DNA of 34,127 nucleotides from contig QPGO01000391.1 in NCBI GenBank assembly GCA_008632985.1, positions 1 through 34,127 of the forward strand, written 5' to 3'. Position numbers and translations under genes: made by a program. Positions 539-27,040 of the stretch are shown here, in pieces. The DNA is from Psammoneis japonica. Its lineage: Eukaryota. The notes below the pieces were generated by a model. The model was not told where the DNA came from. It was given only the letters and a program-made list of their open reading frames with translations, and did no database searches. Numbering within the stretch: position 1 is the stretch's first letter; each line of letters opens with the position of its first letter.

Positions 539-1004
539 GCTGCTGTTGCAAAATCACGCATGCATCCGCACACGCAACCAAACACGAAGAGCCAAGCACA
601 ACAGCAACACGAATGGATTGTTTGCAAGTGTGGTTGCTTTTTCCAAAGGGAGTCAATGTAATGCAAGCAACGAAATGATGCACGAATGTGGAGACAGCGA
701 CAACAACGATGCTTTGTGCAAAAAAGAACAACAGCAATCGACGATCGATCCGCGACTCCTCGCTCTTGATCGTGCTTTTCCATTTTTTTCGAAATTTTTG
801 ATTTTTGGATCCAAAAGATCGCAACCATAAGTGTCCCTTGAAGTTCAGGTTAGTACAAAATCACGTTCAAACGCACGTAGGATTCAGAAGGAAGCCGAGC
901 GAAGTTCGAGATCGTCATCGTCCGTGCGTGTGTGCTGAAGACCGTTTCTTCCGGATTCATTGACGGAAGCAAAGCATGACAGTTGCAACAAGCAGCGCCG
1001 GTCG

Positions 1005-1063
1005 CAAGAGTTGCAGCAGCACTCGCAAGAGCTGCAGCAGTGGTGCAAGAGTTGCAGCAGTCG
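1005..1063. repeat. Short 20-21 bp tandem repeat, 3 copies
   Basis: caagag(t/c)tgcagcag at 1005, 1026, 1046. Confidence 0.7.
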
Positions 1064-3402
1064 CAACTGCACTGCAGCAGCAGTCACACTTGCATGCCCC
1101 ATGGAACATGCTGGTGACAACTGAAGTCAGAAGCAGCACCATCACATGGAGATGAGCTCGCGGCAAAAGTGGCGACTGCAACACAACAAAATCATGATGA
1201 CATCAATGGAAGATGATCACAGAATGCTGCCACTGCTGCTTTCACTGATGGCAAGCCAAGCATGCTCATTTTTGAAACTCTTTGTCTGGGTTCTGCAGTT
1301 GTTTGAGCTGCCCAGCTGCTCAAACACCGCCAACTCCCATGCCGCACAGCTGCTCCAGCTCCATCTGCTCCCTGGTGTGCCGCCCAGCTGCAAAATTTCA
1401 ACAATCTGAGCTGCCTTTGAGGGCTTGTAAACTCTGTCACAATGCCCACCACCCCCTTTTTTGTCAAACATTCATCATTTTTGCTGGCGGCAAGCCTGAT
1501 GTTTGCATTCCTGCTTGTTGCTTGCAAGCTCAAATTTGCACAGACATGCTCCAGAGTGTGTCTGTTTATTTTTGCACCTTTTGCAACAGTCACATTGCCA
1601 GGTGATGTTGTTTGCCAGCCCTGACATGCTCTTTTGAAGACACAAAATGTTTGCCATGCCTGCGGGCTTGGTGGAGAAAGGTTGGGGGCACATTTTGCAG
1701 GCGCAAACATCGCGCAGCAGAATTTAAAGTGTCTCTGGAGGGGGTCTGTGCATTGGGCAGGGACATCTGGACATTGACACACACTGCATTTGGCAATCAA
1801 TGCCAGTGTGTTACATTTTTTCAATGACAACATGTGAAAAATGCACATGCTCAGCATGTCAAGCACTGCTCAACATGAAGAACCCACACGCGGCGGCACA
1901 CCTTCAGACAAAAATGTTTGACATTTCAAATTTTTGACAACTTGTTGAAGTGTGCTCCATCAACAACTGTGAACTCATCATGACACTGACGTGCATCTTG
2001 CAATCAGTTTCACATGTGTGTGCAGCTGAGATGTTCAGTTTTTGCCCATCGCTTTTTGACCACATGAGTCAACAATGAGCCGTCACACTCTCACATGTCA
2101 TTTTCTGCCATGCACAAGTTCACAAGATGTGACATGTTGTTGATTGTTGTGGCTCTTCAAGGTGGCCTGACACTGTTGAGAAAACTGCAACAGCAGAGTT
2201 GCCATGGTGAGGTTGTTTCTGTGGCTTCAGGCTGCAGCATGCAAGTGACAAATTTGCACTGAATCTGAGTTGTGCTTGTCAAGTTGCCATGGCTGCTGCT
2301 TTGTGCATCATGTGCCCACCATTCTTGGTGGCAGGGCTGGCAGCAAAAAATCATAATTTGGCAAAAAATGCTGAGGTTGCAATGGAAATTTGGGTGTCTG
2401 CAGCAGTTGAAAGCACTCCTGTTCTTGGAAGTGCAAATCAACACCTCACCGGGAAGTGACCTCTTGGTTCTCATTGGCCATCTCAATGTGGCAACTTGCC
2501 TTGTTGCAACATGGCAAGAGACAACATTGCCACAGTTGATGGCAACAAAAATGAGCTTGATGGGGGGCTCAAATTTTCTGCAGATGTGATGCAGTTTTTT
2601 GGCATGCATTGCAAAGTGAGACCTGCAATGGAGACAGGTCTGTTCTGCAAGGTCTGGCAAACAAGTTGGTCATGAAACTTGACAAGAGCAAGGTTCTCCT
2701 ACATCAGAAGTCCGTGGTGATCTGGGAAGAGACTGCCTGGACCAAAGTTGTGCCAGACACAAGCCTGCAGCTCTTTTTTGAACAAGTTGTCCTTGTTTGC
2801 ATCTCCTCAGCCCATTGTGTGTGACCTCTTTCCCAGTCAGCCCTGCTGCAACACGGCCAAACAAAGATGCAGTCTTGCTCCCCTGCAACTTTGCTCCAAG
2901 CGGCACATGGCAATCATTTTTGGATCGGACAAAGCAGGCCATCTTGACTGCATGCCAACAAATTTGTGGTTCAAAGAGCCTCAATGTGTCAGGTCTTTGT
3001 CATCATTTTCTCCCCTCCCACTTCTTGCAACATGAGAAACACACTGTCAAAGTGACTTTTCTGTTGTTTCAAAGCCATCCAATCACCAACCAACAAACAA
3101 AGCCAGCAACAATGAAGTGCTCTCACTTTGCCAAACACCACTGGCCAATTGGAGGCTGCATCGATGTCCACTTTTCCAAAAGGTTTGTGAAATTGCTAGC
3201 CTCAATGGCCTTTTGGGCCTCCCTTGTTGGAGCAAGATAAGGATGGTGATGGCACATGGCACCCATGCCATTGCCAAAAGTGAGTTTTTGTGCCAGACCC
3301 GACATGGCTGTGATGCTGCCAAGGTTTGGCAAAGTCAGCATCTGCAAATTTGTTGGAGCCAAAGGGTTGCCTTTTTTGCCCAGTTTGGCAAGTGTCATCT
3401 TT

Positions 3403-3781
3403 TGCACTGTGCTCGAAGAACGAGTGTAAACGAAAGTAGAATGAAGTTCAAAAAGTGAAAATTATGAGAATTGTTTCTGCGCAATCATTTTGGGTTTCTC
3501 CGAACGGGTTCTCAACAGCCTAAACCTTTTGTGCTGCTCCCACAGACAAAAGGCCTTTTGGAGAATGTGATCGTGACAACAGATTGTCCGGATACGATTG
3601 ACATTGACACACAAGATGTCAACATCATCGCACGATCGCATTTGCGATTCTCGACATCCGATCACTTCTGTGTGATTGATCTGTACTTCGTACGAACCCA
3701 CGATTGACGTGCGATTGAAGTGTGCTTTCATTTGATGTGTGGACACACACACACAGCATGCACATGACAACGCACATTGCA
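3403..3781 (-). repeat. Gypsy 3' LTR (379 bp)
   Basis: Aligns end to end with 8200-8577. Confidence 0.95.
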
Positions 3782-3792
3782 TTCGCCTCCCT
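3782..3792 (-). other. Gypsy polypurine tract
   Basis: AGGGAGGCGAA on the minus strand, directly abutting the 3' LTR. Confidence 0.85.
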
Positions 3793-3807
3793 AATTGCAC
3801 ATTAGAG

Positions 3808-6800
3808 TCAGTTGTCAAACGGTGTTGTTCGACGAATGTTGACAGTGTCAATGACGTTGCCGCATTTGATCTGCACTGTGCCATTGGCATGCACCGTTGT
3901 TGTCACATGCGGTCCAACACAGGGCTGTTCTAATTTTTGCGAGTCTTTCTCAAGTGGCATCTTTTCTCCTGCTCTGCACGTGCAAGGAGTGCGTCGAGCA
4001 TTCTCTCGAGCGTTGTTTTTATTTATGATTTCTTGTTTTCGCTGCTGGATTGATTTCCAGTCCGCGACATGTTGGACGTTAAATGTCATGTCTCCATTGA
4101 AGACTGGTTGTCCTGGTGTGGCTTGCGCAGTGGCATGACACGCAGAACGTGCCGCAAATGCCACTGCTGACAGTGTTCCAGCGAAAGGATCCTCAGCATC
4201 TAGAGGTGTGTGTTGCAAATCAAATGTGCGGAGCATGTTCCCCAGTGCTTGATGTGCGCGTTCAACAATTGCGTTTGCTTGTGGATTTCATGCAGTTACA
4301 GGCTTGACTTTAATGCCATGATCATCTTGCACCATTTCTCTAAATTGGTGTCCGATGAACTCACTTCCATGGTCATGTGTAATTGACGATGACCAAGGAC
4401 ATCTACTTGGCCATGTTCGTTCTAACAGTCCAGCTGCAGTTGTGGACTCCTCATTTGGGATTTCCACAACTTCAAACCATCCGGTTGCTGGATCGATCAT
4501 AGTTAAACATTTCAGGACTAGGGGTTTTTTCTTTCCCTTACGACGTATTTTGTATGGCCCAACAAGGTCCACACATAGTCGTTCCCATGGTGCGGATTCT
4601 GCGCACTTAGGAGGTAAATGTCCATATTTCTTGTGTTTCTTTTTGAATTTTTGGCACGTCTCACATCTCGACACGTATTTTCGTATGTCTTCACGTAAGG
4701 TGGACCACCATAGGTGTTGTGAGATTGTTTCTTCTGTTCGATTTATGCCAGGGTGAAGAAGGTATGCATGATACCAATCTATCACTGCCTTTTGTAACGT
4801 CCTCGGGACGACAATTTTATCCTTATGACATATGAGCAACCGGTCTCGCTCGCCTCCACGAAAAGTCTTCGTATGAAACGTCTTATTTGACAATTGGGAG
4901 AGAATGTCTTTATCCCGTTTTTGTTCATAATCAAGAACTTTGTAATTTAACGGAAAGACATTGTCGTAGGATTTTGGTAGGACCTTTTCAGCTAGCTCTT
5001 CTGTGCTGAGGGTTTCCATAGGTTCTATTTTCTTCATAGTAAGTCGGCTAATCGCGTCTGCGACAATATTTGCCTTGCCCTCAAGGTATATTATTTCGGG
5101 ACTGTATTCTTCTATTATTAGACGCCAACGCATGACTCTGTCCGTTGTGAAATTTTTGTGTGTGAGATTTTTGTGATCCGTATATATATTTATCTGTTGG
5201 CCAAACAGTATATTTCGGAACTCTTTTAACGTCTCCACTATGGACAATAGCTCTTTTTCCGTTGTAGTATAACGCGTCTGCGCTCCATTCAGCTTGCGGC
5301 TGTAGAAGGCAATTGGTTGGTTTTTCTGAGTAATAACCGCCCCCAATTGAGATTTACTAGCATCGGTATATATCTCAAAGGGTATATTAAAATTCGGGTA
5401 TGATAATAGTATATCTTTGGAGATGATGCGCTTCATATTTTCGAAGGCTTTTTGTTCTGTTTCGGTCCATTGCCACTTTACTTGGGTAGAAGTGAGTTTG
5501 GCTAAGGGAGCTAAAACATGAGATCGTCGAGGCCACATGTCTCGACAGCAGTTGATCATACCGATAAAGCGTCGCAATTCCTTGCGAGTTTTAGGAGTTG
5601 CGATCGCGTGAATCGCTTCTGCTTTTTTTGGAATCGGACTGATGCCCTTGCGGGTGATATGAAAGCCTAGATAGTCTACTTCGGGTTTAGCGAAAAAGGA
5701 CTTCTCGGCGTTGACCTTCAATCCGGCTTGTTCTAGGCGTAAGAACACCGTTTCAAGCTTCTTGAGGTGGTCTTGAAAATCACCTTTTGTGAGACACAAC
5801 ACATCGTCAATGTGAGTTCTGACGAACTCCAGACCTGCCATGAGCTCACTCATGTGCTCTTGGAAAATATCTGGAGCTCCACAGATTCCCATCGGGAGTC
5901 TACAGTACTCACATTTGCCCCAAGGCATGACAATCGTGCACAAGCGACGTGCATGCGGCGTCAATTCGACATGATAGCACCCCATGTTTAAATCTAGGGA
6001 CGTCGCATGCATGAAGCCTTCGAGCTTCTGTAGCATATCCTGAATATTGGGTAGAGGAAACGGAGTACGAATTAACCTCTTATTTAGCTCACGAAAGTCG
6101 GATGAGAACCGAACTCTGCCATTTTTCTTGGGTTGAATAAAGGTTGGAGCCGCCCATTCAGAACAATTTATTTTTCTTAAGACTTTCAACTTGCATAGTC
6201 TTTCAACCTCCTTACGAGTAGTCGCCTCCAAGGCTTGTGGTGCGGGAAATGGTTTGGCATGACACGGACTCACGCCCGATTTCAACTTTAAATCCACCGG
6301 TTTCCCGGTCCATTTGCCCAGAGAACCATCGAAAAGGTTTTCAAATCTTTTTAAGAGGAAGTTCAGCTGCTTCTGCTCTTCAGGAGTTAGATGAGTAGCT
6401 GCTGCGGTCACATTATTGAGGTTTGCAGCGTGACAGTCTGAGTCAAGGATCCGATTGACCCTGTCATTAAGACCAATCACTGCATGAGATTCCTCAATGT
6501 GATCGGCAATCAACTTAAAAACATCGGCATCGAAGAGTGCACCAACATTCTTCATAGGAGTAGTTGCATCTTCCCATTTAATTTCTTCATTCGAGAAGTC
6601 CAACATCATCCCAAGACTTGACATTAAGTCGCGTCCCATGATCACATCATAACGACTCGAAGAAGAAGGGGAGTTGTCAACACACACCGTTGTTTCAATC
6701 ATCTTATGTTTGTCAAATTCGGGTAAGGAGAATTGGATCTTACATCGACTGTCAGTCGTGAAGAGCCCTCCTTTGGTTTCCCAGAGTTTGGTGGCGGATA

Positions 6801-7008
6801 CTTTTGTTCTGAGTTTCCGCGTGAATTTGCGCAAAATTATGGTTGACGATGTTCCGCCATCGAGGAGAACGCGCAGAGGCTTATTTTTCGCCTTACCTAA
6901 TGAAGTGTTCATATGGGCGACGACTGCTGGACTAGCATGAATTACTTTGGCCCTTTTTCTGGGCTTCCTAATGTCCAGTAGAGCGCAAGACTCCTCTTGC
7001 GGTGCAAG
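3808..7008 (-). pseudogene. pol: Gypsy pol (protease, RT, RNase H, integrase) with one internal TGA
   Basis: LLDGGTSS (PR); WAAP, DFRELN, LPMG, HIDD (RT); TDAS, EKELL, TDHKNL (RH); HPG..C..C, CVDLVGP, DHGSEF (IN). TGA at 4288-4290 sits in TA*NPQANAIVER and the same frame continues to 3808 with a GPH (GPY/F-like) motif. Confidence 0.95.
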
Positions 7009-8163
7009 TCATTCCTCGGAATCACTGCGCGTCATTTTTTCAAACTGATGATTTTCCTCGTCAAGGGTGTCAGAATCACAATCTTTGCTCTTGTGTTTTT
7101 TGTCATTGTTCGAAGAACTCGCTTTGAGCAATTTTTGAACTGCTTGGATCGCCACAGCATTCAACTCTTCTTTGCGAGCGGCGTTGTCGTTATCGCGACG
7201 AGACCACGTGCGATTGCCATTTGAACGGTGCCGTTTCGGGTCGGGTTCATAGTTCCCACGGCGTTCTTTCGCAAGTCTTTTGATCGACCAGCACTTGTCC
7301 GTGTTATGAGTGGATTTCTCGCATGAAATGCACCACTTCTCGGACTGAGATTTTTCGGCACCATGTTGGTGACCATTTTTGGAACCACGTTGGGAACCAC
7401 TCTTGGCTTTTGATGCAGCACCGCCACTGCCATCAGCCTTGGCATGAATGCCATCAAATGTGTCTTCTGCGACCTCTAGGCGCTCCAAGAACTCAACCAG
7501 CTCGTCACAGGTATGTTTCAAAATTTCGAAACCCTGGACGGTCGACTGACGCTGCCACTTTCGAGGTGCAAGGTTGAAGAGGATGTCCTTGAGCTCGTCG
7601 TCCTCGATCTTCTGTTCCTTCCCAAAGGGAGGATAGAACTTGAGGTCTTCGTTGACTTCTTGGACCCAAGCAGCAATTTCGCGTACTTTCATGGACTCCG
7701 GCTTCTTGAGATCACGACGCAAACAACGTTTCTGCACCGAAAGTGCGTTCTTGGGAAACACATGCCTCGTGAGATGTTGTGGGCATTTCTCGAAGCTTCC
7801 TTCCGCAGATTCGTCTTCAAGGTTCGCTGCCGCATTCTCGAAAGCACGTAGAGCGTCTCCTTGGAGTAACACACGCATGAGACGAAACTCATCAGATTGC
7901 TTCCTGATGTTCTGGCCCACTGAAAGTTGATCGTAGCTCTTGAGAAATTCGATGAACTTGGGGACACCTTGTTTCTTGTAGTGCTCAACATTGATGGTGT
8001 GGGTGCGGCTGTCCTTCTTCTCGGGATGAAAACGTTGCTCCATCTTGAGGTGCTGGCTCGGTTTGAGGCTCTTCGGCTCGGAGTTCGATTCCAGCGGTTG
8101 AGGGACGATTTTCTCCTGCCTTGACGAAGTTTTGGCGTTGGTTGCATGAGGTGAAAGCTTCAT
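7009..8163 (-). CDS. gag: Gypsy gag
   Basis: ORF between the 5' LTR and pol, ATG at 8163 (MKLSPH...), CX2CX4HX4C knuckle CISCEKSTHNTDKC. Confidence 0.9.
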   Translation of the reverse strand: MKLSPHATNAKTSSRQEKIVPQPLESNSEPKSLKPSQHLKMEQRFHPEKKDSRTHTINVEHYKKQGVPKFIEFLKSYDQLSVGQNIRKQSDEFRLMRVLLQGDALRAFENAAANLEDESAEGSFEKCPQHLTRHVFPKNALSVQKRCLRRDLKKPESMKVREIAAWVQEVNEDLKFYPPFGKEQKIEDDELKDILFNLAPRKWQRQSTVQGFEILKHTCDELVEFLERLEVAEDTFDGIHAKADGSGGAASKAKSGSQRGSKNGHQHGAEKSQSEKWCISCEKSTHNTDKCWSIKRLAKERRGNYEPDPKRHRSNGNRTWSRRDNDNAARKEELNAVAIQAVQKLLKASSSNNDKKHKSKDCDSDTLDEENHQFEKMTRSDSEE

Positions 8164-8199
8164 CTTGAACTCATTACCTTCTGTGGTGTGTGTGCACAA

Positions 8200-8577
8200 T
8201 GCACTGTGCTCGAAGAACGAGTGTAAACGAAAGTAGAATGAAGTTCAAAAAGTGAAAATTATGAGAATTATTTCTGCGCAATCATTTTGGGTTTCTCCGA
8301 ACGGGTTCTCAACAGCCAAACCTTTTGCACTGCTCCTACAGACAAAAGGCCTTTTGGAGAATATGATCGTGACAACAGATTGTCCGGATACGATTGACAT
8401 TGACACATAAGATGTCAACATCATCGTACGATCGCATTTGCGATTCTCGACATCCGATCACTTCTGTGTGATTGATCTGTACTTCGTACGAACCCACGAT
8501 TGACGTACGATTGAAACATGCTTTTATTTAATGTACAGACACACACACATGGTACGCACATGACAACGCATGTTGCA
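8200..8577 (-). repeat. Gypsy 5' LTR (378 bp)
   Basis: Direct repeat of 3403-3781. Confidence 0.95.
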
Positions 8578-9160
8578 CTTTAGTGGCAAACACATGAGCG
8601 CAAACAGGACAAATGGGAGAACACAGCATGATGACCAGCTGCCCCTCCTTGAGCGTCACTCTGTGCTGCTTTTCCTGGGATGTTCAAAAGCACACCACCA
8701 CAAAGCTCACAAGTCAATGGCCCGCTCATCATGCACGCCCTTTTTTCCTTCTCTGCAGCTTTCAACATTTTTTGTTGGCTGCTGCCCACATTTTTTGGTG
8801 CTCAGGAAGAACTCTTTTTTGATGCTGGTGCTCAATGTGTCAAATGGAAAGTCTTTTTTGAGGTCCTTGACATCAATGACAGGTGTGTCGTCACAAAGAA
8901 AGGAGGGCGTCATTCTGCTTGCACAGCAATTGGTGTGCTTGCCAGCAGCACACTTGTGCTGATTGACAAAGTTTGTGCCAGCATTTCTGCGCGGAGCATG
9001 CAAGGTCAACAAAGTGAAAAAAATAAAAAAGAAGAGCAGCCAAAAGAAATGACTTGCTGTGACAAATGCTCTGGGGTCGCACGCAAGACAGAGAGCCCCA
9101 CAAGGCTGTGTGGTCATTTTCTGCCAGGCCTCTTGCACAAAGGTTGCAGCAATTTTGATG

Positions 9161-9182
9161 CCCCCCCCCCCCCCCCCCCCCC
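9161..9182. repeat. C22 homopolymer
   Basis: Read directly from the sequence. Confidence 0.9.
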
Positions 9183-10083
9183 TTGGCAGAATTTTGGAAA
9201 ATGACAGCACAAATGATTGCATGAAGGTGCTCAGCCAAGCCAAACAAAGGGGCAAAGCTGCTCACAGGTGCCAAACTTTGAAGGTCTGCACCAGCAGCAT
9301 GGTCACACAAGCAGCAACTGCTTTGTGTTGACACCATCATTGGCTCTTGTTCTTGCTTGCTGAGTTTTGGAGTGGTTGAGTGAGAAGGATGGCAGTCATG
9401 CCACCACCCAGGAACAAACTTCCACTCAGGTCCACACTGCAATTGATCAATGGTTTGTCACAATGCTCCAAGCAAGTCCACGCATTGAAAGCACCCAACT
9501 CAGAGAGCCCAGCATCATTCACAGCAGCAGCAAAGAGTGTCTTTGCTTGTGCCTGACTGGCTCACTCTGCTTGTGCCAACTTCTTCTTTGTCAACTGCCT
9601 CCATCCACCTGCAATGTGCGCATCTGCAAAACTTGCTGGGTGGCACCCCCAAATTGCCTCAGGAGCATTTTAAGAAAGCAGTGCTGGCAATTGCGCTGCA
9701 CTGCAGTGACAAGACTGGCCCTGGCCATGGTGATCAACACAGAGAGAGCTCACAAATGATGAGCCTGCCACTTTGTCATTTGAGTTTCTCATCAGTGCCA
9801 ATCGCACACTGGCAAACAACAGGCGCTCTGCGGTGCGTTTGCCATCTTCGAGCAGCTCGGAGATGGAGGGTGGGGGCAGAACCAAGCAGAGATGAATCCA
9901 ACTTTTAAACATGTGTTTTCTTTAGACAAAAAAATCGTTGTCAACATGCATGCCAAGTTCTTGTGTTTGTGGTGCGAACTTGACTACGGAGTGGTGTCGT
10001 TTCCCCATTGCGTTGTGCCAAGACAATAAAAATGCCATCTGCGCAAGGCAGAGCGACCTGCAAGAACTCCAACCACTCCATTT

Positions 10084-10253
10084 CTAGTCCTTTGGGCGAC
10101 AGGTGGCTGTGAGGAGAAGGGGTTGATGATCGAAATCCATGGCATCAGAAAAGTGCATCATGGCTTTTGTGCAGCAGCCCGCACTCCAGCCGTGCGTGAC
10201 GCACTTTTGGAATTTGCTCTCGAATTTTTGGCCCGAGTTGAGGGGCGGCGATC
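10084..10253 (-). pseudogene. C-terminal fragment of the EEP-family gene interrupted by Copia-1
   Basis: RSPPLNSGQKFESKFQKCVTHGW...FSDAMDFDHQPLLLT* carries the terminal DH-P EEP motif and joins in frame to 16560-17541 once the element and one TSD copy are removed. Confidence 0.85.
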
Positions 10254-10478
10254 TGTTGCAACATCCAGAGAACAGACAACAGACAGAGTGTGTTGACATC
10301 ACAATGGACATGGGGCGATTCTAGGTGCCAGTGCCACAGCTGCTGAAGAGAAAATTGTGAGGAGAGGAGATGCTCTTCGTCTGCTCTCCCAGTTTCCCGA
10401 GTGACGTTTGCACTGATGACGCAAGTCTTTGCAACGGCGGGTCACAATGACTGTCTTGATGATTTGACAATCTTCACA
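10254..10478 (-). repeat. Copia-1 3' LTR
   Basis: Direct repeat of 16335-16559. Confidence 0.95.
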
Positions 10479-10487
10479 CTCCCTCTC
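10479..10487 (-). other. Copia-1 polypurine tract
   Basis: GAGAGGGAG on the minus strand, abutting the 3' LTR. Confidence 0.85.
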
Positions 10488-10515
10488 ATTGTGTCTTGCA
10501 AGTTAAAGTCTGAAC

Positions 10516-13500
10516 TCACCAACCCATCACCAGAGGACGTAAGGTCTCTAGGATCTCAGCCGCAACCGGCTTGGTGAGACAATCCGCCAGTTGGTCCTTG
10601 GTGTCGATGTCGTGCATCGAAATTTCTTTTCGAGTGACACAGTCGCGAAAGTGGTGCAACTTGACATTCAAGTGCTTGGTTCGTGGTCTGCACTTGTGCA
10701 CGCGCGCCATCTCTAGCGCCCCGCCATTGTCTTCAAACACTTTGCAATGGATCTTGGGCGCAGACGTCTTGACAGGGAAGCTGTGTCACTTGAGTTCATT
10801 CAGCATTTCCATCAAGGGTGTGGCTTCTCGTAGAGCGTGCGACAAGCCTGTGCATTCAGATTCTGTGCTGCTTGAGGCCACCTTGGTTTGCAATTGAGAT
10901 TTCCAAAGAATGGGACAGCCCGCGCAAGAAATGACACAACCGTGTCGAGAACGTGCTGCATCTCGGTCTTGGCTTGCCTCTCGTGGGTCCCAATTCCCGC
11001 TAAAATCTGCATCCACGTAAACCTCCAAGTCCTTTCCCTTTACAGGTTTCAGGATTGCACCCTTGTCTCTGGTCTTGCACAAATGTCTGCCAAGCCACCG
11101 CATGGCTTTGGCGTGCTCAACCTTGGGAGCTGCAGTGAACCATGCGCATTGGTGGGTGATGTACGCCATGTCGCTTCGAGCACATTTTTCCAAGCAACTC
11201 AGCTTGCCAACAACCGATCGGCAGTTGAAGGAATCATCAAACGGTTCCGAATCGGAGTGCCTTAACAGCATCTTGGAGGATGCCGCCGGAGCATCCTTGG
11301 GTGCGGCACTTGGTGAATCCAGTCGTAAGTCCTTGAGCATCTGATCGATTGAGTGTGGTTGCGTCAAGTGGACCGTGCCATCGTTCTTCCTCACGATGTT
11401 GATGCCGAGAAAATCCTGTGTGTCCCCTTCCACAGTAATGTCGAGTTTTGCCTCCTTGAGTTCCTTGATGATCTGATTAATTTCTCTCTCATCAGGACCG
11501 GCAATCAGCGAGTCGTCTGTGCATGGAAGGCAAATGGTTTTCCCGTGATAGAACATGCACTCATCAACCTTGGACTGCTCGAAACCAAGCTTGTTGACGA
11601 GCTTGTTGACCAGATATTTGTTCCAAACTCCACCAGCCTGTTTTTGACCGTGTGCGTTTCGATGGAGCTTCAGGACATAATCCTTGGTGTTGCCGTCGAC
11701 TAACTTGAAGCCCGCTGGCATTTCCATGTAGAGCTCCTTGTCTACCGGCGCTTGAGGGAAGGCCAAAACGCAGTCCAATTGCTTGGAGTGCCACCCGTTC
11801 ATTGCTGTCAGGGTGAGCAACATTTGAATTGAGTTTCGTGATGCTACCGGTGCGCACGTCTCTTCATAATCCTTTCCTTTCCTCATTTTTGAACCGTCGA
11901 CATTCAAGCGAGCCTTCCACTTCTTGACCTTGCGAGTCTTAATGTCGCGCTTGCGCTTCATCTGCCACACCGCTGGTAGCACCTTGCTGTCTCTTTTCAC
12001 CTGTGATCGTGGAACAATGGAGAAATTGCCATTTTCCATTTGATCCGTTACCTCCTTTTGCATGGCTTTCAGGAACTGCACGCGATCCGGTTCCTTCATA
12101 GCCTGGTGCATGTACATGGTGTCTGGATCTGCTGATGCTTTACAGGCAAGGAGGGGATTCTTGTCTTCTCTAAGTTCTTGTGAGTCTTGGGGATACATTG
12201 CTGCCAAACACAACATCTCACCCTCGACATCGTTTCTTGTTTCGGAACTGATTTCGGCCGTCACAGCTTCTATCAGTCTGCTGACCGGTCGGCTCTTTCG
12301 CCCTGAGCGAGTCACTTTTGGTGCATCGGTGCCGTTTCGTGTCTCGTCAGACTCGCGCTCTCCTGGAGCTACTTCTAGAGATTCAGTCGCTGGCGTAGGT
12401 CCACCCTCGTCTTCCTGAGGTTGTACGTGTGGACTATCTTGCCTCGACGCCACTTGGCCAGTGGCTACTGCAGTGTTTCCGCTCTGTTGCGGTCCCGGAT
12501 TTAGGTCAGCCCATTGAACTCATTTTTGTCGTTTCTTGCCTCGCCTGGCTCCCTCTGAATTTGCTTTCCGCTTCTTCGTGGTTGGAGCTGGTGTGGATGC
12601 CGTTTTGGCTGCTCCACTAGTGTCAGCTTTCGTTGCCTCCCTCTGAGCTACAAAGCCGGCTTTGATTTGCCATTGCGAGTCCAGCTTGTCTTGCCGCACC
12701 GCATGGAAGGAGGGATCAAACTTGACATGGAATTGTGGGCTAACTAGAGCAGTCGCTCGATCCAGCACGAGCGCCACATTCTTTCCATGCATTGGGCTTT
12801 GGCCCAGATAGACTCCGACCCTTGATCGTTGCTTCCATTTGTGGTGTGGCAGGTTGGATTGCAAGGCGCTGTCAAGAACGTACACTGGGCATCCGAAGGG
12901 TTTCCAGTGTTTTGGGTTGGCAGAGACTCGGGTCTTGGAGAATGTTTGCATGGGGGACAACCTGTCCTTGTTTTGGAAACTCGGCACGTTGTTAATCGCG
13001 TCGTTGGCCATCCTTGTTGCATGAGGCCACAGATTCGCTGTGATTGCTTTCTTCCACCGGCTTTGAGTGTGCACTGACATGCTCCCAGCGAGTTCTTGGA
13101 GCTCGCGCATGCGACGCTCGGCCAAGCCATTCTGGTGGTGAGCGCCTGCCGCTGCGAAGGTGAGCCGTTGTCCTTGTGATCGACATGCAAACACCCAGTC
13201 GTTGGCCTTGAAGACACCATTGTCTGCATGGCAGGCTTCGACTGTAACGCCACACGTCTTGGCGCATTGCTCGAAAGCTTGTTTCCCTTCTGACGTCTCC
13301 GCTGCCGATGCCGTCTTTTGTAGATGCACACATCCCATTTTGGAGCATTGATCAACGTACACCGTAGCATGCTTGTGCCGTTTGGTGGTCAGCCATCTGG
13401 TCATTTGAGCAATCAACCCCGGTGCAGGAGATGCAAGTTGGTCTGCGGAGACGACTTGGCCTGGGCGTGTGGGTTTTTCCGTCGGTTGCTGGTTGCGTCG

Positions 13501-14991
13501 TGTCTTGTCTCGCCACTTGCGCTCAGCAGCCTTGGCACACAAGCATGCAGAGCAGACGGGTGCATTGCATTTTGCCAGCTTCTTTGGCGGCATGCCCAAT
13601 CTTGCCATCCATTGCAGTTTTGCAAAACTCATGTGGCCGAATTGTTGATGGCATCGCAGGAGCAGTGATGCCTCGGCAGAGCCTTGGTGATCCTCTTCAT
13701 CTTCCACCACTGCTGGTGGCTTGACGGCTGCTCCCTCTGAGGTGGAACTTGGCATGGTGCCCATGTCTCCCTCTTGCTTGCCATCCAACGGTGGTCCGTC
13801 TAAGTTGAAATCTGCTGCCGTTGACCCGTCAATTTCCCCAGGTGCCGACCCTGAGTCTTGCGACTGGCCTTGGTTCATTGGTTGCCATTCATCACGCGGC
13901 GCATCAGCATCGCACTCAACCTCAGCATCATCATCTTGATCCTCATCGTCGCTCACGACTGCCGCCTCATTGGCCAGCACAGGATCCTCGACTTCTTCTG
14001 CTGGGTCGACATCCGCCTCCGCACAGAATGCTTCGTGCTTTTGGCATCCGGGTGCTGGATGAAATGCAGCCACGTTGGTCATTTCACTCAGCGGCATTGT
14101 CAGCCGGTGTTTCTTCTGGTTCCAACAGAGGGTCACCTGCCTTGAGTCAGTCTTGCCACCCGTGCCTTCCTTGGGTTTGCTGTCCCTTTGGGTCTTAGCC
14201 CAGTGTTGAGGGCTCAGCAACCTGACCTTCCCACTTGGTGCGTAGAACGAATTGGGCATCTTGAACTTATGCGTCCCACCCTCGTCGTCGTTCCATCTCC
14301 ATGGCAGGGTGCCGATCTTCACCCCGGTGGTTTTTGAACCGCCAAAACCTTTTGTGGTTCTGTTGCAGTCTCGCAATTCACCAACAAAGTCTTCCGCGCA
14401 ATCGGACATGCAACCTGTGGCCCGATTGTCAACCCCGACTGGTCCTGAGTCAGTGTCGAAGGTCACCGCATGCTCCATGATGCTCTTGTTTTGAGCCTGC
14501 ATTGCGACCACCACCACAGCCAGTGCTGCGGCATGGTGTCGTGTTCGCCTGGGTCTCTTGAGTTCATCCATAGATTGGTGGAGTCTTCGAATTCTTCCTC
14601 TTCTGGACGAGTCGGTGTTGGTGTCGATCGCTTCAATGAATTGTGCCGCTTGTTCTCCGACCTGGCACATCTTGCTGGTCAAGCAGCGGCAACCCTTCCG
14701 CAGCTTGTGCCATCTTTTCTTCTTGGGTGCGCAGTGCGGGGAGTGTCCTGGGTTGTCGTTGTAGTGGAACACAAGGCAGATGATTGGGACCGCGGCGGAT
14801 GGAGAGCAGTGAGCGCAGGCCATGGTGCGATCTGCGATGATGAGTGCTAAAACAATGTTTGTGCAATTGCAGGCTGTCGCCTGCCATGCGAATGTAGCCG
14901 TTGCTTCAACAAAAGCGCAGCACAACATTGTAAGGTCGCCAATTGCATGTCCATCATCACAGCAGTCACAACTGTGGCCGTGCTCTAGGAG
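10516..14991 (-). pseudogene. pol: Copia-1 pol with two internal TGA stops
   Basis: FDTDS..VDNRAT (PR); HQQFGH..CSAC, ADQL, HADNG, QNGLAERR (IN); KARLNVDG, AFPQA, GQKQAG, CTDD (RT); YVDADF, STESE, EDN (RH). ORFs 12520-14928, 10786-12453 and 10516-10740 share one frame. Confidence 0.95.
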
Positions 14992-16305
14992 TCATTCGGA
15001 TTCGTCGTCCGATGGCTCCTTGTCGACTGCTGCCTCGTATGCCTTCGTAAGCTTGAGACGTCGTTTGCTGTCTTGTTTGCGGTGGAACTTCTTCTCCTGT
15101 TCGTTTCCGCTCTTGCCATTGGCCGCTCTCTTCTTGTTCTTATCCGGGTCACATGAACAATTCTCCGGAGTGTGCTTGCGCCACTTTCCAGGGCATTTCC
15201 CTCCGACGTCCTTGTGGCAGTGGCAGCATTTTACACCGTTCCAGTGCCCAGGCTTGGAGATCACATCCTTGGTTGGGCGCAAGTTGTCCTTCATCCATTT
15301 GGGCATGTTTCGCTTGTCACCATCCTTTCCTTTCCCACGCTTGTCGTCCTTTCTGGTGTTCTCAGCAGATTCGTGCTTCTTAGCTCTTTTCTCAATGCCT
15401 TCGACTTTGGCTTCCAGAGCAAGTGTCTTCTCTTCTTCCTCGCTAGGCACGTTCCACTTCTTCTTCTGAACCAAATTCTTGCACTTGTTGTCCGCAAGCG
15501 TCATGAGGTGATTTGGCGCAATGTCCTTGCCGTCCTCGCATTCCTCTTGCTTGTTGCCAATGTGCTTGGCAAAGTTCTTGTCCGAAGCAGCGAGGTGTCC
15601 TTTGAACAAATTCGTCAGGAGATCCTCTGTGGTTTCGCCACGAGACCTTAGCGCAGCGAGAAGGAGAGCCACGTGCTGATTGAACTTCGTGATGTCGTGA
15701 CCGATCGTCGGCAAGCATTGGTCAAGCTCAGCGAGTTTCGTACGGATCGTGCTCGTGGTTGCATTCGTGTCTAGGTGCGACTCTTGAATGATGACCTTGA
15801 GGAGCAAACATCCAGAGATCTTGTCTCCGATCTTGTAGGACGCATCGTGGACACATGCCTTGTCCTTCCCAGCCTTGGAGATTGAGTTGATCAGACAGTG
15901 TCCGAGCATGGTAGTGTCTTGAGCTGCACGGCATGGATTCCTGATGTACGACTCCTCGTGTCTCTTGATGCGTTCCATGCTGATCTCACCATGGCCAGTG
16001 AGCAAGTTTGAGTGCGTCGTGTCCGGATCTTCAGGGTCTTCAGGTGTCACAAGGATGCCTGTCGTTGGGTCATTCCATCCGAGCAGGCTGGCCCTGGTTT
16101 CAACATTCTTGAGGAACTGAAAGAGTTCGCCTGGAGTGCAGTCGAATGCATCTCCACTTGATGCTTCCGAGCCATTTTCGAACAGCTTTTGTCCAGCACT
16201 CTTGCGAAAGTCAACTGCTCCCGCAACAGCTTGAGCTGGAGCAAGGGCAAACGGAATGTCCTCATCGGACGTTGAGGACGATGATGCACTTGAAACGTCC
16301 GACAT
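14992..16305 (-). CDS. gag: Copia-1 gag
   Basis: 437-aa ORF starting 30 bp after the 5' LTR, with a C-terminal Cys/His motif CCHCHKDVGGKCPGKWRKHTPENC. Confidence 0.88.
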   Translation of the reverse strand: MSDVSSASSSSTSDEDIPFALAPAQAVAGAVDFRKSAGQKLFENGSEASSGDAFDCTPGELFQFLKNVETRASLLGWNDPTTGILVTPEDPEDPDTTHSNLLTGHGEISMERIKRHEESYIRNPCRAAQDTTMLGHCLINSISKAGKDKACVHDASYKIGDKISGCLLLKVIIQESHLDTNATTSTIRTKLAELDQCLPTIGHDITKFNQHVALLLAALRSRGETTEDLLTNLFKGHLAASDKNFAKHIGNKQEECEDGKDIAPNHLMTLADNKCKNLVQKKKWNVPSEEEEKTLALEAKVEGIEKRAKKHESAENTRKDDKRGKGKDGDKRNMPKWMKDNLRPTKDVISKPGHWNGVKCCHCHKDVGGKCPGKWRKHTPENCSCDPDKNKKRAANGKSGNEQEKKFHRKQDSKRRLKLTKAYEAAVDKEPSDDESE

Positions 16306-16318
16306 GATTTTTCTTCTT

Positions 16319-16334
16319 TAGTGCAGAGGAAGCG
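16319..16334 (-). other. Putative primer-binding site complementary to the tRNA-iMet D-arm
   Basis: Plus strand tagtgcagaggaagcg(tg) resembles eukaryotic tRNA-iMet (U)GGCGCAGNGGAAGCGUG; abuts the 5' LTR. Confidence 0.55.
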
Positions 16335-16559
16335 TGTTGTAACATCCAGAGAACAGACAACAGACAGAGCATGTTGACATCACAATGGACATGGGGCGAT
16401 TCTGGGTGCCAGTGTCACAGCCACCAAAGAGAAAATTGTGAGGAGAGGAGACGCTCTTCGTCTGCTCTCCCAGTTTCCCGAGCGACGTTTGCACTGATGA
16501 CGCAAGTCTTTGCAACGGCGGGTCACAATGACTGTCTTGATGATTTGACAATCTTCACA
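16335..16559 (-). repeat. Copia-1 5' LTR
   Basis: Direct repeat of 10254-10478. Confidence 0.95.
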
Positions 16560-17541
16560 GCAATCTGATGAATTTCGTGATGGTGTCACAGGCCTCCCGC
16601 GGGATGGCATCTCTGGGTGGGTGCCACGCCTCCACTAACATCTTTTGCTCTTCCACCGTGTAACTGTCCGCGTGTGGACCATTGAGGTCACCCGTCACCG
16701 CGATGGACGACGCCTCCTTGTCACCGGACACGAATTCCTCCATGCACTCCACAGCACGTTTGGCCTGTTCGACACGGGACTCTTGATCATTGTTCTCCAG
16801 ATGGGTCATGAACACGTACCCGACGTCCTTCATCTGAATACCAATCAGGGTCCGGGCCTCGTCATAGGGGGGGTCCTTACCACCGGGCTTGTTTGTGGTG
16901 GTGGGTAGATTCCACATGGCCGCCCTGGTTGGTTTTTGTTTCGTGAGGATGACATTGCCCCAATTGCTGCCCCACGGACACGGTTTGGGATTGCTGAACA
17001 AAAGGTGACGGAAACCCAATTCGCACAGATGCTTGGCCCAAGGGAAGGTCACCTTCTTGGGCTTTCCATTGTTTTTCTCTAATTTCTTGTGGTGGCAATC
17101 TGGCCAAACGTTCGTCCCGTGCGGTTGTTCAAAGACGTTGTCGGCCTTGGCGTCCGGGTGCAACTCGATCATGTGGCCGGGATTCTTGGCCGATTCTTCG
17201 GCAATGTCGTTGGGCACCAATGTCTCTGACAAGCACAAAATGTCGGCCCCGGTTGTTTGGAAAATGCCAAAGACCTTTTCCGGACAACGAAGGAATCCAC
17301 CACCATTGAGATTGTGGGCCATCAATGTTTGGTGGTGCTTTTCTGTTTTCGAAGAGTTCTTCTGGAGTTGCTCCAGCACCGTCACGTCATGGGCCTCGTG
17401 CTTTTCAACGCAGAGCTTTTCGGTCATCAAAGCACAGGCTCCTGGATTCAACAGTCCCTCCTTCTTGGCGTGTTTCACATCGTCCACGCTCTGGTGCATT
17501 GCAAAGAACGGCGGTTCCAGAAAAAAGGACTGAGACGCCAT
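16560..17541 (-). pseudogene. Endonuclease/exonuclease/phosphatase (EEP) family gene, N-terminal portion
   Basis: Motifs LMAHNL, ADILCLSE, WGNVILTK, VFMTHLE, VTGDLN; the ORF runs into the Copia-1 LTR. Confidence 0.88.
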
Positions 17542-17694
17542 TGTTGTTGACAGTTAAGGCAAGTTTTGATGCAATCTGTGGTTGGTTTTGTGTGAACAAA
17601 AAATGTCGGAGACCGGCGGAGCAACCACAAGCACGAATGAAACAAAAATCAAAGGCAACACCAGGCCTTCGCGCGAAACGTCAAAATGCGCGAC

Positions 17695-17918
17695 CAAGTG
17701 AATCCAGCTGCCGAGTGGCTCAGCCACTCACAGCACTGGTGTGACAACAATCTAATGATCCAAAGATGCTCTTAGGCCTGTTGCAACTGCTCGTAACAAG
17801 TGAGCGCCATTGGAGGGAAAAACAACGCTTCCCTCCGACAACACGTCACAACGGTTGACTCAGCACCAGCCGTCACCAACAGTGCTCTAACTAAATCTGA
17901 TACATCGGATTTCTTTCG
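17695..17918 (-). repeat. Copia-2 3' LTR
   Basis: Direct repeat of 24015-24238, preceded on the minus strand by AAGGGGAC (PPT-like). Confidence 0.92.
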
Positions 17919-18087
17919 GTCCCCTTGAAATGTTTCTAACAAGCCAAGGGCGTGCTTGACAGACACAATTCAACCAATGCAATCAACCACATTGACACTC
18001 CGTGCTGGCCATGGTGTAAACCCTCACTGGGGAAGAAAATCACCACCGACCCGATTCCCAAAAATCTAAACCCCATTTGCCGCCAAT

Positions 18088-21000
18088 TCAACAAGCGAAC
18101 TTGTCCAACAGGAAATTGCGACGAATCGAAGTCACAACCTTCGTGAACAAATCCGCGAGGTTAGTTTCCGTATCCTCCTTTGCCAAGCGAACAGTCCCCG
18201 CAGCAACAGCTTCCCCATTGCGATGGCATGCAATGGAGTGATGCTTCTTCTTGAGAGCAGACTCTGGGATGGAGCAATTCTTGTGCACTGCTTCATTGTC
18301 ACAGAACACGTTCGTAGAACCTTCAACAGGAACTCCAAACATTTGAAGCTTGTGCCTCAGACCTTCAACAAGTTCCACCGCGACCTTGAGTGCCACGATC
18401 TCGGCGCCAAAAGTGCCAGTCTCCACGGTGTTCTGTCTCTTCGAATGCCAGATTGTGGGTGCTCGGCATGGGAATGTCAGAATGCCTGTGTGACTGCGGC
18501 GAGTTGAAACGTCACCAGCATGGTTGGCATCCACGAAACAATGAGTGGACACAACGTCGCCTCGAGGTGGTGGCATGTTGGGGGGAATGGCCTCTTGCGC
18601 GTCTCGGCAGAAGTCGAGCCAATCGCACTCCTTGAACCTAGACTCGTCGATGACCGGATGTGCAGGATCGAACGCCACCCGACGCTTTGGGACCTGTTTG
18701 GGGCATGCAAAGACATGCAACACCTGTTCCAAGTGACCAATGTGCGGCAAGGCAAGGTGAGCCGACACATTTGACACTTCCAAAATGATGTCGACCCCAC
18801 CCAATTCCACGGCCCAAATCAAAACGCCAATCAGCTCTTGGCAGCAGTTGAGGCCTTCTGCATCCAGTTCGCCCGAAGTGTCCAACTCCGGCTTGCATCC
18901 GCTGCTTGAAGGTGTGCACGCTTTACTCGGTGGCCGTTTTCCTTCCTTGGCCAATTTGTCCTCAACGTTCCAGACCGCTGCCTTGCAGCATTCTTCTGCT
19001 GACATTGTCCAGCAGGCAGTGCCGTCAGCAAGGTCCATCTTCGACAATTTGGTGCCCAAGCAGGATTCGGGTTCCACTGCTTTATCGTCTTTGAGCTTGA
19101 ACTTCGACTTGATGCCATCCACAGTCTTCATCGGCTCATGACTGATCGACAGCAAGTCGTCAACGTACACCAAGATGCACTCGTAGTGCTCGAATCCGTC
19201 TGGCTTCACTGCAGGCCTCATCCAAACGTCGGGATCAGCCTTGCTGGGCTTGCATCCTAGATCATAAAGCGTCTCCGCCAGGAAGGCTCTGAATGCCGCG
19301 CCAGAGCTCTTCAATCCGTAGAGTGCCCTGACTGCAGTCACAATCTCACCGCGTTCCACGCCAAACTCTTCACCGGCACGAGTCCAAATTTTCTCTCGGC
19401 ACGGCGCTGTCAAGCAGGCATTCTGGGTGTCACAGGCAAAGACTTGTGAGTCATCAAGCGCGGCAAGTGCAAGAGCAATCCTTGCCGAATCCCTGGAAAC
19501 AACTGAGGAGCAGGTGATGGCAGTTGGGGCATCGGTCATGTGACCACCCACAACCATCCTGCTCTTGCGTCGAAAGTTCTCTCCCAACTTGATGTCAAAA
19601 ATCATGTGACAGTCGATTTGTTGGCACCCAGGAGGCAGTTCCGTTTCGTCCCCCTCGAACTTGTCGAACGCAACTCGAACATTCTTCATTTCCAAGCAAA
19701 TGGCGTCATGCCGTGAGGTGTTGCCGTTCGCACGATTGAGCTCCAGTGCCTCCTTCACAGTCTTGGGAATTCGTGTGCCAAATTTGTGGGTTCTCAACCA
19801 ATGCTTCGACTCAACCTTCGCAGTGGAACGCTTGCGGGTCCTCATCACGTGCGGAACCCACCAAGCAAACGCCGGCTCCTTCGAGATCTTGCGTTGGATG
19901 GCGAACTCGGCGACCTGGACAGGGAATCCTTCCTTTGCGTCCTTCAGGTCAACCCAAGCAGCACTGCCATCCTTCCATTGGAGCAAGAGTTCCCATCCTT
20001 TCGTGGTCCTGCGTCGCCTCTTGTTGCCTTGCTCAGTTTCAAAGAAATTGGATTCCGGGACGTCCCCATTCGTGCAGAAGTCCACAATCTCGTCGAACAG
20101 AACATGCCGATTTCCGTCCTCGTCAATCTGTGCGAACATGTTCATGGCAATGGAGTTGGCTGAGAGTGCTGCAGTGTGACCATCGGGATGCTCCACCTGA
20201 CACATTCGAGTGTCTGGGATTGGGTTGTCATTGGCTGTCCCAATGGGAATGCCGTTCGCATCCCTCAACCTCTTCGTTACGCGCGCGAACTCGGGACCAT
20301 CATCATCTCTTGGCAAAGCCAATTCCATGTTGAGATGGCCCCAATCCGCCACTTCCGGGGAGGCTTCCTCGTCTTTCTTGTCGTCGTCCTTGTTTGACAC
20401 ATCTTCAGAACTGATGACGCGATCGCACTCGTCGAGGAATTCATCGTCGTACCCAAGATGGTCCTTCCAGTCTTCGGGGCTGATCCTGCGCTCTTCGTCT
20501 TCGGGAAAATCTTGGTCACAAAGTCTGCGCTGGATCTCCTCGTCAAAAGCCTTGAACCGATCTTGATTCTCTTGAGTGCCAGCTTCCAAGTTGGTGACTC
20601 ACTGAACAGATGTCCGTGACATGACACGACCGGTTTGCGTCAACACGTAATGTGACATTAGACTGCCAATCCGGTGGGACACTCCGAGCCACCTGCCGAG
20701 CTTCTGGTCACCAAGACCAGCATTCTCCCTGTGCCAAACCCGATCGTAGAATCCGAAGTCAAGGCACTCTGAGATGTCAACAGTTTTGCCAAGTGTTTCT
20801 TCCAGAGGAANNNNNNNNNNNNNNNNNNNNNNNNNNNNNNNNNNNNNNNNNNNNNNNNNNNNNNNNNNNNNNNNNNNNNNNNNNNNNNNNNNNNNNNNNN
20901 NNNNNNNNNNNNNNNNNNNNNNNNNNNNNNNNNNNNNNNNNNNNNNNNNNNNNNNNNNNNNNNNNNNNNNNNNNNNNNNNNNNNNNNNNNNNNNNNNNNN

Positions 21001-22287
21001 NNNNNNNNNNNNNNNNNNNNNNNNNNNNNNNNNNNNNNNNNNNNNNNNNNNNNNNNNNNNNNNNNNNNNNNNNNNNNNNNNNNNNNNNNNNNNNNNNNNN
21101 NNNNNNNNNNNNNNNNNNNNNNNNNNNNNNNNNNNNNNNNNNNNNNNNNNNNNNNNNNNNNNNNNNNNNNNNNNNNNNNNNNNNNNNNNNNNNNNNNNNN
21201 NNNNNNNNNNNNNNNNNNNNNNNNNNNNNNNNNNNNNNNNNNNNNNNNNNNNNNNNNNNNNNNNNNNNNNNNNNNNNNNNNNNNNNNNNNNNNNNNNNNN
21301 NNNNNNNNNNNNNNNNNNNNNNNNNNNNNNNNNNNNNNNNNNNNNNNNNNNNNNNNNNNNNNNNNNNNNNNNNNNNNNNNNNNNNNNNNNNNNNNNNNNN
21401 NNNNNNNNNNNNNNNNNNNNNNNNNNNNNNNNNNNNNNNNNNNNNNNNNNNNNGCGTCTTCGAGTTCCGAGCCGATCGTCTCAGTGGCCGCGATCTGAAC
21501 ATCCGCTTCCACCTGGACCAACGCCATCAATCTTGATTGAACTTGGTCCACACCGCAGACAAGTCTCCCATCACAACAGTCCCCGGACTGAGGGTTGCCA
21601 TGATCAGGATCCTGACTGAACGCGCAGCTGGGGCTTGACCGAACACTTGCAACTGACCGAATCAACTCCATTTCCTCCTCCACAGAACGTCGAGGTCTGG
21701 ACTGCTTAAACTTGACGTTGTGTGGATCCCAAGGTTGTTGGGAGGTCAACTGGATGTGTGGGCACTCTTGGAGCTCCCTGTCAGTGGGGGTCCGAGTGGC
21801 CGCAACGACACCAGTTCCCATCAACTCGAGAGGCAGCATAAATCCCTTGTCCTCCGTAAGGACACACAACGGCGACTCGGAACAGGGGTTGTCCTGAACC
21901 GTGATGCCGAAATGCCTCATCTGATTTGGGTTGAGGAGAGAATTCTCCATGGAATCTGCCATCCAAAGCCCCTCATGGAACACTGGGATGTGCGTTGCTC
22001 CCGTCGCCGGTGAGGTCCACGCAGTGGCCGCCGATGCGATTGGGACACTCTTGATGGCTTCGCATCCCTCGTCACAAGGCGACACGTCGCACTCTCTTCT
22101 TTTCGTGAGTGGCACGCGTGTTGGTCCGTGCCGCAGAGACTCGTCATGTAGAAGCAGCAATTTCACAAATGCAACAACAGTCCCCATGAACCAACGTTTC
22201 TTTCGAATGATGCGGCTGGCCCCCGCCCCAATGAAGCAGCCACAATGCAAACTGGATGAGGCTACAAAGCAGGGTCCAGCTCAGGAG
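18088..22287 (-). pseudogene. pol: Copia-2 pol (stops at 22144-22146 and 20599-20601, apparent deletion/frameshift at the protease active site, integrase core lost in the gap)
   Basis: SLLNPNQMR (PR region), DISECLDFGFYD..GRWLGVSHRIG, KGWELLLQWKDGS, SSVVSRDS, ALYGLKSSGA, YVDD and RNase H motifs. Confidence 0.92.
20811..21453. other. Assembly gap
   Basis: Run of N. Confidence 1.
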
Positions 22288-23709: not shown

Positions 23710-24000
23710 GGTGAAACTTGAGTCATTGTGGCATCACAAGACAAAGCAGTTGTGTCAGAAGAAGCACATCAAAACTTTGACGTTCACAAAATCGCGTTGA
23801 CGACACGCGCAGGCCTCAAGAGTGCGGAGACACGGCCTTGTCTCCCACTGCTTTGCACGTGCACTGATGCGAAGGCATCACTCAATGGTGAACACCCTCA
23901 GGTTAGTCGGCATTCGTCGTCAAAACCGCGCCATCGTGACACAACCGTCACAATCACATCATTCATCGTTTTTCATCGCCAAACCGCGGAGTGCGGACTG

Positions 24001-24014
24001 TGGCTCTGATGAAG
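24001..24014 (-). other. Copia-2 primer-binding site, tRNA-iMet 3'-end type lacking TGG
   Basis: CTTCATCAGAGCCA directly after the 5' LTR; compare canonical TGGTATCAGAGCCA. Confidence 0.75.
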
Positions 24015-24238: not shown

Positions 24239-24242
24239 CGAC

Positions 24243-27019: not shown

Positions 27020-27040
27020 AAACAAGCTGCCGCGCACAAG

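Follow-up and report, generated by a model that had tools for sequence, protein, structure and literature searches.

The gypsy element

We analysed a window of 34,127 nucleotides (nt) from the genome of Psammoneis japonica (GenBank assembly GCA_008632985.1, contig QPGO01000391.1, positions 1 to 34,127 of the forward strand), to which all positions given here refer. The window contains an insertion of a Ty3/gypsy retrotransposon of 5.2 kb on the minus strand, which is bounded by a pair of direct repeats at 3403-3781 and 8200-8577. These long terminal repeats (LTRs) have lengths of 379 and 378 nt, respectively, and are 94% identical. The initial annotation had recognized the pair and named its members left and right. 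The pair itself was confirmed, but its orientation had to be corrected: on the minus strand the 3' LTR corresponds to the left repeat (3403-3781) and the 5' LTR to the right repeat (8200-8577). The assignment to gypsy is based on the TG...CA ends of the LTRs, a short target site duplication, a polypurine tract, and the order of reverse transcriptase, RNase H, and integrase. The target site duplication CTTT was read directly at 3399-3402 and again at 8578-8581. The sequence at 3782-3794 is purine-rich on the minus strand, and its position at the inner edge of the 3' LTR suggests that it is the polypurine tract.

The internal part of the element encodes, on the minus strand, a pol frame of 906 amino acids (4288-7008) with matches to the Pfam domains RVT_1, RT_RNaseH, Integrase_H2C2, and rve, that is reverse transcriptase, RNase H, the zinc-binding domain of the integrase, and the integrase core. 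This frame terminates within the integrase core at a TGA whose position is occupied by arginine in 55 of 60 homologues, and a comparison with other copies of the family identified this stop (4288-4290) as a CGA>TGA change private to this copy. Downstream of the in-frame TGA, alignment to pol homologues recovered the remainder of the integrase frame (3795-4287, minus strand), in which all four codons with tyrosine consensus that read as Cys, His, or Tyr are Cys or His. The reverse transcriptase motif YxDD reads HIDD in this copy, with the His codon at 5814. A gag-like frame (7009-8199, minus strand) without any Pfam match lies in the same frame as pol, and its open frame comprises 411 codons (8244-7009). 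A single TGA at 7009-7011 separates gag and pol, which might reflect translation by read-through or a change that arose later.

Differences between the two LTRs

A pairwise tabulation of the two LTRs showed 22 substitutions, all of them transitions with not a single transversion, and one 1-base indel at 3521. At ten sites the 5' LTR has TA, while the 3' LTR has either TG (3473, 3567, 3711, 3734, 3739) or CA (3541, 3612, 3631, 3729, 3757), with the two outcomes interleaved. At five further places one LTR has TG and the other CA (3532-3, 3721-2, 3740-1, 3754-5, 3775-6), hereafter called doublets. The remaining differences are one CG/TG site (3759/8555) and one other transition (3720/8516). All of these counts reproduced exactly those of the initial annotation. 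Common to both LTRs are six TA and 21 CG, so that among CG sites 21 were intact and only one was hit.

The dinucleotide TA covers 8.5% of the positions of the 5' LTR, where 16 TA remain, yet it accounts for 10 of the 12 single-site differences (binomial p=1e-9). Seven TA remain in the 3' LTR, which carries the TG or CA state at all ten single-hit sites. Altogether, a scheme of TA, TG, and CA explains 20 of the 22 substitutions. That all single hits fall in one LTR had been pointed out before and is unlikely to be due to chance (10:0, two-sided p=0.002). The divergence of the pair amounts to 5.8% as raw value (22/378) and to 0.5% (2/378) without the TA-type changes, in agreement with the earlier suggestion that LTR dating is inflated in this element.

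Direction of change

The gypsy translation was aligned to 60 pol homologues (the first 60 of 120 listed) with 52-60% identity, and a column was considered conserved if at least 60% of the 60 homologues agreed in the residue. Among 33 columns with tyrosine consensus the gypsy copy has Tyr in 13, Cys in 10 (all encoded by TGY), His in five (all CAY), Phe in four, and Leu in one. In contrast, the gypsy copy retains the consensus residue in 487 of the 605 columns conserved for other residues (Fisher p=7e-7). Even columns with Tyr in all 60 homologues carry TGY or CAY in the gypsy copy. The same pattern was found for the copia element at 10786-16317, which was compared with 60 homologues of its own, the named ones being from diatoms (56-62% identity): its 33 tyrosine columns contain Tyr in 11, Cys in 13, His in seven, and Phe and Trp in one each. 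Replacements of Tyr by Cys or His thus affect 15 of 33 columns in gypsy and 20 of 33 in copia. A single loss of TA is sufficient to explain 35 of 138 replacements in conserved columns of gypsy and 54 of 142 in copia, while the loss of a CpG would explain 6 of 138 and 10 of 142, respectively.

The presence of Cys or His codons at conserved Tyr positions in both elements shows that TA is the ancestral state and that TG and CA are derived, which is opposite to the repeat-induced point mutation (RIP) of fungi. The initial annotation had proposed the same direction, with which the depletion of TpA in the window also agrees. It had further described the process as strand-symmetric, and this is supported by the five TG and five CA states in the 3' LTR. 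Over gypsy and copia together, 23 changes from Tyr to Cys stand against 12 from Tyr to His, a weak strand bias that is not significant.

Composition of the window and its other elements

Over the whole window the ratio of observed to expected (o/e) TpA is 0.21, compared to values between 0.81 and 1.27 for the other 12 dinucleotides. The lowest values were found in the two flanks of the gypsy element (0.08 each), followed by three copia elements (0.15-0.22), gag (0.16), and the 3' internal end of gypsy at 3782-4399 (0.27); the gypsy centre has a value of 0.67. Outside this centre the ratios of TG and CA are 1.2-1.8. Among the 1870 stop codons in the six frames of the window, TGA occurs 1411 times, TAA 261 times, and TAG 198 times. 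Because TAA and TAG have been erased, long open frames persist in dead elements.

The window as a whole is a nest of transposons. Three further LTR pairs, at 10254-16559, 17695-24238, and 27043-33875, bound copia-type elements with RVT_2 matches. Another pair (24242-27025, with repeats starting at 24242 and 26621, 2.4 kb apart) lies just past the right end of the second copia element at 24238 and is the oldest of all. All five LTR pairs, which represent at least four families, show the TA-type signature. In the four younger pairs combined, 61 of 73 substitutions are of the TA type (17 single sites and 22 doublets), seven are of the CpG type, and five are others. The same pairs share 47 CG and have seven CG with single hits, from which only about 0.13 discordant double hits would be expected. 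As 22 doublets were observed, a CG ancestor cannot account for them. Doublets are instead expected to be common because the loss of TA is near saturation. The 61 TA-type substitutions, compared with five that are neither of the TA nor of the CpG type in the four pairs, are an indirect indication of the rate.

The oldest pair (24242/26621) differs by 17 CG-versus-TG/CA sites and nine transversions, which suggests a slower second process, the decay of CpG to TpG or CpA, in the oldest DNA. The regions 1001-3400, 8578-10253, and 24001-26000 have a CpG o/e of 0.34-0.5 and are also free of TA. The long frame of the copia element at 10786-16317 is interrupted by TGA stops only, and long open frames are present on both strands of the window. 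Two tandem arrays were found near the left end, one at 11-445 with an 84-bp unit (5.2 copies, 79% matches) and one at 992-1060 with a 21-bp unit (3.3 copies). Runs of N, which represent scaffold gaps, are located within copia elements at 20811-21453 and 29882-30248, and the first of them causes the low G+C at 21-22 kb in the composition profile.

Possible patchiness and sequence context

The initial annotation had interpreted the accumulation of hits in the 3' LTR as a gradient toward the most degraded flank, and this did not hold. Both flanks are equally free of TA, with two TA in 3001-3400 and none in 8601-9000. Furthermore, gag beside the 5' LTR is at least as depleted as the internal DNA on the left side of the element. 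Along pol, conserved tyrosines were lost at six of six positions in 3909-4401, at one of ten in 4500-5450, and at eight of eleven in 5547-6435. The block 4500-5450 is the least mutated part of the element, with nine of ten conserved Tyr codons kept and the highest density of TA. It differs from the rest with a Fisher p=0.001, although the block was picked post hoc, and a runs test for clustering of the tyrosine hits along pol was not significant (12 runs, P=0.18). These data are suggestive of a loss of TA that is patchy rather than graded within the element.

We further compared the densities of surviving TA in the old DNA relative to the young gypsy centre for each sequence context. Survival was about 1% for ATAT and 5-8% for ATAN and NTAT, compared to 20-54% in the other contexts, with the highest values for GTAC, CTAG, and CTAA/TTAG (32-54%). 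Surviving TA with an A before or a T after it make up 13 of 66 in copia but 79 of 158 in gypsy. This suggests that TA is lost preferentially in ATA and TAT, in a comparison that spans different elements and with a codon-based test that is biased. Asymmetric flanks gave a contradictory picture of the base under attack (ATAn to ATG in 18 cases versus ACA in seven; nTAT to TGT in 14 versus CAT in eight), in a test that is biased since only some codons reveal a hit.

Other copies of the gypsy family

Contigs from three sequencing runs, one of which contains this DNA, were compared with the region 3200-8800; no RNA run was listed for the sequence. In the run with this DNA, the sequencing depth of the gypsy family is 5,000-25,000, compared to 60-80 in the unique flanks, which corresponds to about 100-300 copies. 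Transitions prevail among the variable places of the family copies, which comprise 184 A>G, 206 T>C, 137 C>T, and 139 G>A changes, and 68 transversions. The states of individual variable places were obtained from 40 of 754, none of which is among the ten single-hit LTR sites. At 4563 this copy has a private loss of TA, as 56 of 60 homologues back the family codon. The state at 7724 looks like a private loss too, with only four homologues aligned there. At 7049-50 this copy encodes His and the family Cys, and at 7780-1 it has CCA and the family CTG; in each case the two states could derive from a single ancestral TA codon that was hit on opposite strands.

An exact 24-base word from the LTR had no match in metagenome contigs. 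A protein-guided scan of the metagenome recovered five related loci with 45-64% identity, and the TpA o/e of these relatives is 0.53-0.96, i.e. ordinary. In the unique flanks, a single contig on either side carries transitions relative to the window, at 3238, 3243, 8736, and 8751 (a TA/CA, a CG/TG, and two other changes), which may be strain or allele variation.

A TpA-specific process acting on integrated DNA

During retroviral replication, changes in the RNA or those made during reverse transcription are copied to both LTRs. The LTRs of this one insertion differ, and therefore the process acted on DNA after insertion, as the initial annotation had argued against RNA editing and errors of reverse transcription. 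The action was in place, on integrated DNA, and gene conversion may explain part of the differences. The direction of change, its specificity for TpA, its effect on both strands, its action after insertion, and its near-saturation in older elements are established for the window. We consider it very probable that the gypsy element was eroded in place by a DNA-level process that turns TpA into TpG or CpA, of the kind described from Bigelowiella natans.

On this reading, the part of the transposon nest in which the gypsy element inserted would have been older and already devoid of TA. The palindromic TpA sites of the element would then have changed to TpG or CpA through A:T>G:C transitions on one strand or the other, far faster than by all other substitutions. 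TG and CA would be end states because neither contains TpA, and old elements would finally be nearly TA-free, rich in TG and CA, and without TAA and TAG stops. The doublets would go back to ancestral TA sites at which the two LTRs were mutated by separate events, one on each strand. A TadA/ADAT-type adenine deaminase might be the agent, and the process might serve to defend the genome specifically against foreign or repeated DNA. On their natural tRNA substrates TadA/ADAT enzymes have a U just before the edited A.

Several points weigh against this reading. The five visible hits in the 5' LTR all coincide with hits in the 3' LTR and none occurs alone (p ~0.02-0.05 under equal site rates), so either the rates differ between sites or sub-regions, or part of the cluster at 3711-3781 was derived from gene conversion with another of the 100-300 or so family copies. 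This hot stretch of 71 bases (counterpart 8507-8577) holds 15 of the 22 substitutions and four of the five doublets. Together with the coincident hits it suggests hot sites or hot stretches, with a conversion tract as the alternative. The direction at the ten LTR sites was carried over from the coding region. Moreover, the sequencing run that contains this DNA is possibly the source of the assembly itself and hence not independent of it. The window is without a host gene against which a targeting to foreign DNA could be judged. Finally, among the 40 places with known states, eight have TA in this copy and TG or CA in the majority of the family.

A family consensus of TG or CA had been named in the initial annotation as the sign that TA is the derived state. 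Such a consensus is indeed seen at some places, yet it is misleading. At 4025, 4520, and 4832, which lie in well-aligned codons, 47-54 of 60 homologues back the TA codon of this copy, while the family majority has CA. At these sites the family majority is itself the derived state, and mutated copies have kept multiplying. The majority of TG or CA at the eight places fits a loss of TA in the master lineage, with confirmation by outgroups at these three coding sites only.

Alternative explanations

A different chemistry could produce the same footprint. Some protists carry hydroxymethyluracil preferentially at TpA. A thymine in TpA that is modified in the manner of 5-hydroxymethyluracil or base J could mispair with G and give T>C, and since TpA is palindromic all observations on LTRs and Tyr codons fit this equally well; none of them argues against it. 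The B. natans preprint (bioRxiv 10.64898/2026.01.13.699255) favours an ADAT2-like adenine deaminase, solely from the presence of a homologue. We regard the thymine route as unlikely, though it deserves to be taken seriously. It seems improbable that the changes were made before insertion, by RNA editing of the ADAR or ADAT type or by deamination of cDNA, and that the LTRs came to differ later by gene conversion with edited copies. About 100-300 family copies would be available as donors, the losses of TA at 4025, 4520, and 4832 are common to most of them, so that mutated copies have spread, and the cluster of 15 differences within 71 bases could be a conversion tract. There is also the mild, non-significant excess of A>G on the sense strand noted for the Tyr codons. 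Editing of RNA or minus-strand cDNA is one-stranded, however, whereas here both strands were hit in the same short stretches. The pattern furthermore recurs in all five LTR pairs of at least four families, TpA depletion is strongest in the non-coding flanks, and the same signature arose de novo in integrated single-copy DNA of B. natans.

In purely formal terms, a C:G>T:A change in one LTR or the other would account for every transition between them, and classical cytosine deamination, either RIP-like (CpA>TpA) or through 5-methylcytosine (CpG>TpG/CpA), would make TA the derived state and explain the doublets from CG. A slower decay of CpG does exist in the window, with the 17 sites in the pair 24242/26621 and the low CpG o/e in the flanks, and the stop at 4288-4290 is itself a CGA>TGA change. 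The direction of change is nevertheless the opposite, from conserved Tyr to Cys and His, and TpA is depleted 5- to 10-fold and not enriched. The frames also lack scattered TAA or TAG stops, only a single CG was hit beside 21 intact ones in the gypsy pair, and CG ancestors predict about 0.13 doublets as opposed to the 22 observed. Cytosine deamination as main process is scarcely credible and was ruled out by the outgroup polarization; it remains as a minor second process. An artefact of sequencing or assembly, by which heavily modified TpA in silent chromatin was misread as G or C, might be considered since the window is a draft scaffold that includes two runs of N, and since the only sequencing run that contains it may be its own source. 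However, the derived states at 4025, 4520, and 4832 are present in most family copies and were thus inherited via transposition. The states also vary from site to site between the LTRs and among copies, and the B. natans study detected this signature in Illumina data by comparison with an ancestor. An artefact is thus very improbable.

Comparison with known mutational processes

Mettrop et al. (bioRxiv 10.64898/2026.01.13.699255) described TpA-restricted hypermutation in mutation-accumulation lines of Bigelowiella natans. In this preprint, 230 of 231 mutations in two hypermutable regions, an integrated giant virus and a virophage, were A>G or T>C, and these were all located at TpA. The rate was about 6e-7 per site per generation, and the mutations occurred in only some lines. 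Hypermutation of this type has a de novo rate of about 1000 times the background and is restricted to foreign or silent regions, with an ordinary spectrum elsewhere in the genome. Reverse transcriptase and DDE domains were overrepresented among coding sequences poor in TpA, and an ADAT2-like deaminase was proposed; the preprint also states that ADAR favours an A that is preceded by U. A search of its text found nothing on LTRs, copies of retrotransposons, or flanking context, and no second report of such a process beyond B. natans was found within the literature searched.

The window shares with the B. natans process the near-exclusive occurrence of A>G and T>C at TpA, the strand-dependent outcome of TpG or CpA, the regional occurrence, and the long-term footprint of TpA depletion with a gain of CpA and TpG. 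A:T>G:C transitions centred on TpA, both outcomes, and action on integrated DNA were all found. The targets described for B. natans are a giant-virus insert of 186 kb and a virophage insert of 25 kb, in which TpA is mildly depleted (Rho 0.45) or not depleted, whereas the targets here are LTR retrotransposons with a TpA o/e down to about 0.1. The window matches the B. natans process in every feature tested, and the data fit an extension of this process to LTR retrotransposons near saturation.

RIP in ascomycetes resembles these observations in that it introduces dinucleotide-specific transitions at the DNA level, kills transposons in place, lets copies and paired LTRs diverge quickly, and distorts LTR dating. 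RIP, however, changes C:G to T:A, mostly CpA to TpA, and thereby creates TpA, stop codons, and AT-rich DNA. The window instead shows a loss of TpA and of stop codons together with an increase in G+C; C:G>T:A changes with a preference for CpA>TpA and an enrichment of TpA were not found. The footprints of APOBEC3 and ADAR in vertebrate retroelements are similar with respect to clustered transitions of the deaminase type and a preferred neighbouring base. These enzymes act before integration on cDNA or RNA, and their one-stranded changes are copied to both LTRs, while here both strands are affected and the LTRs differ. The one-stranded A>G changes and identical LTRs of ADAR-type RNA hyperediting were absent from this element. 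As in the decay of CpG through 5-methylcytosine, a palindromic dinucleotide turns into TpG or CpA on either strand, but the source dinucleotide is TpA, and the decay of CpG in the window is slower and secondary.

Implications for transposons and genome annotation

A mutator that destroys TpA would be a second counterpart to fungal RIP with a different mechanism. So far it is based on one preprint from 2026 (bioRxiv 10.64898/2026.01.13.699255). The window adds LTR retrotransposons as targets, and their paired LTRs provide a built-in control of the states before and after. It also illustrates the appearance of saturated DNA, with a TpA o/e of about 0.1, stops that are mostly TGA, and long false open reading frames on both strands. 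We put forward only tentatively that the TpA mutator is not confined to viral inserts of a single chlorarachniophyte but is a general, RIP-like system of opposite direction that kills transposons, saturates gypsy and copia elements, prefers ATA and TAT, and acts in patches of sub-kilobase to kilobase size. For this element, ages from LTR divergence are about tenfold too old, and a consensus from the family majority may represent the derived state. Gene finders would over-call dead elements of this kind, as the gypsy pol frame is open over 906 codons despite the HIDD motif.

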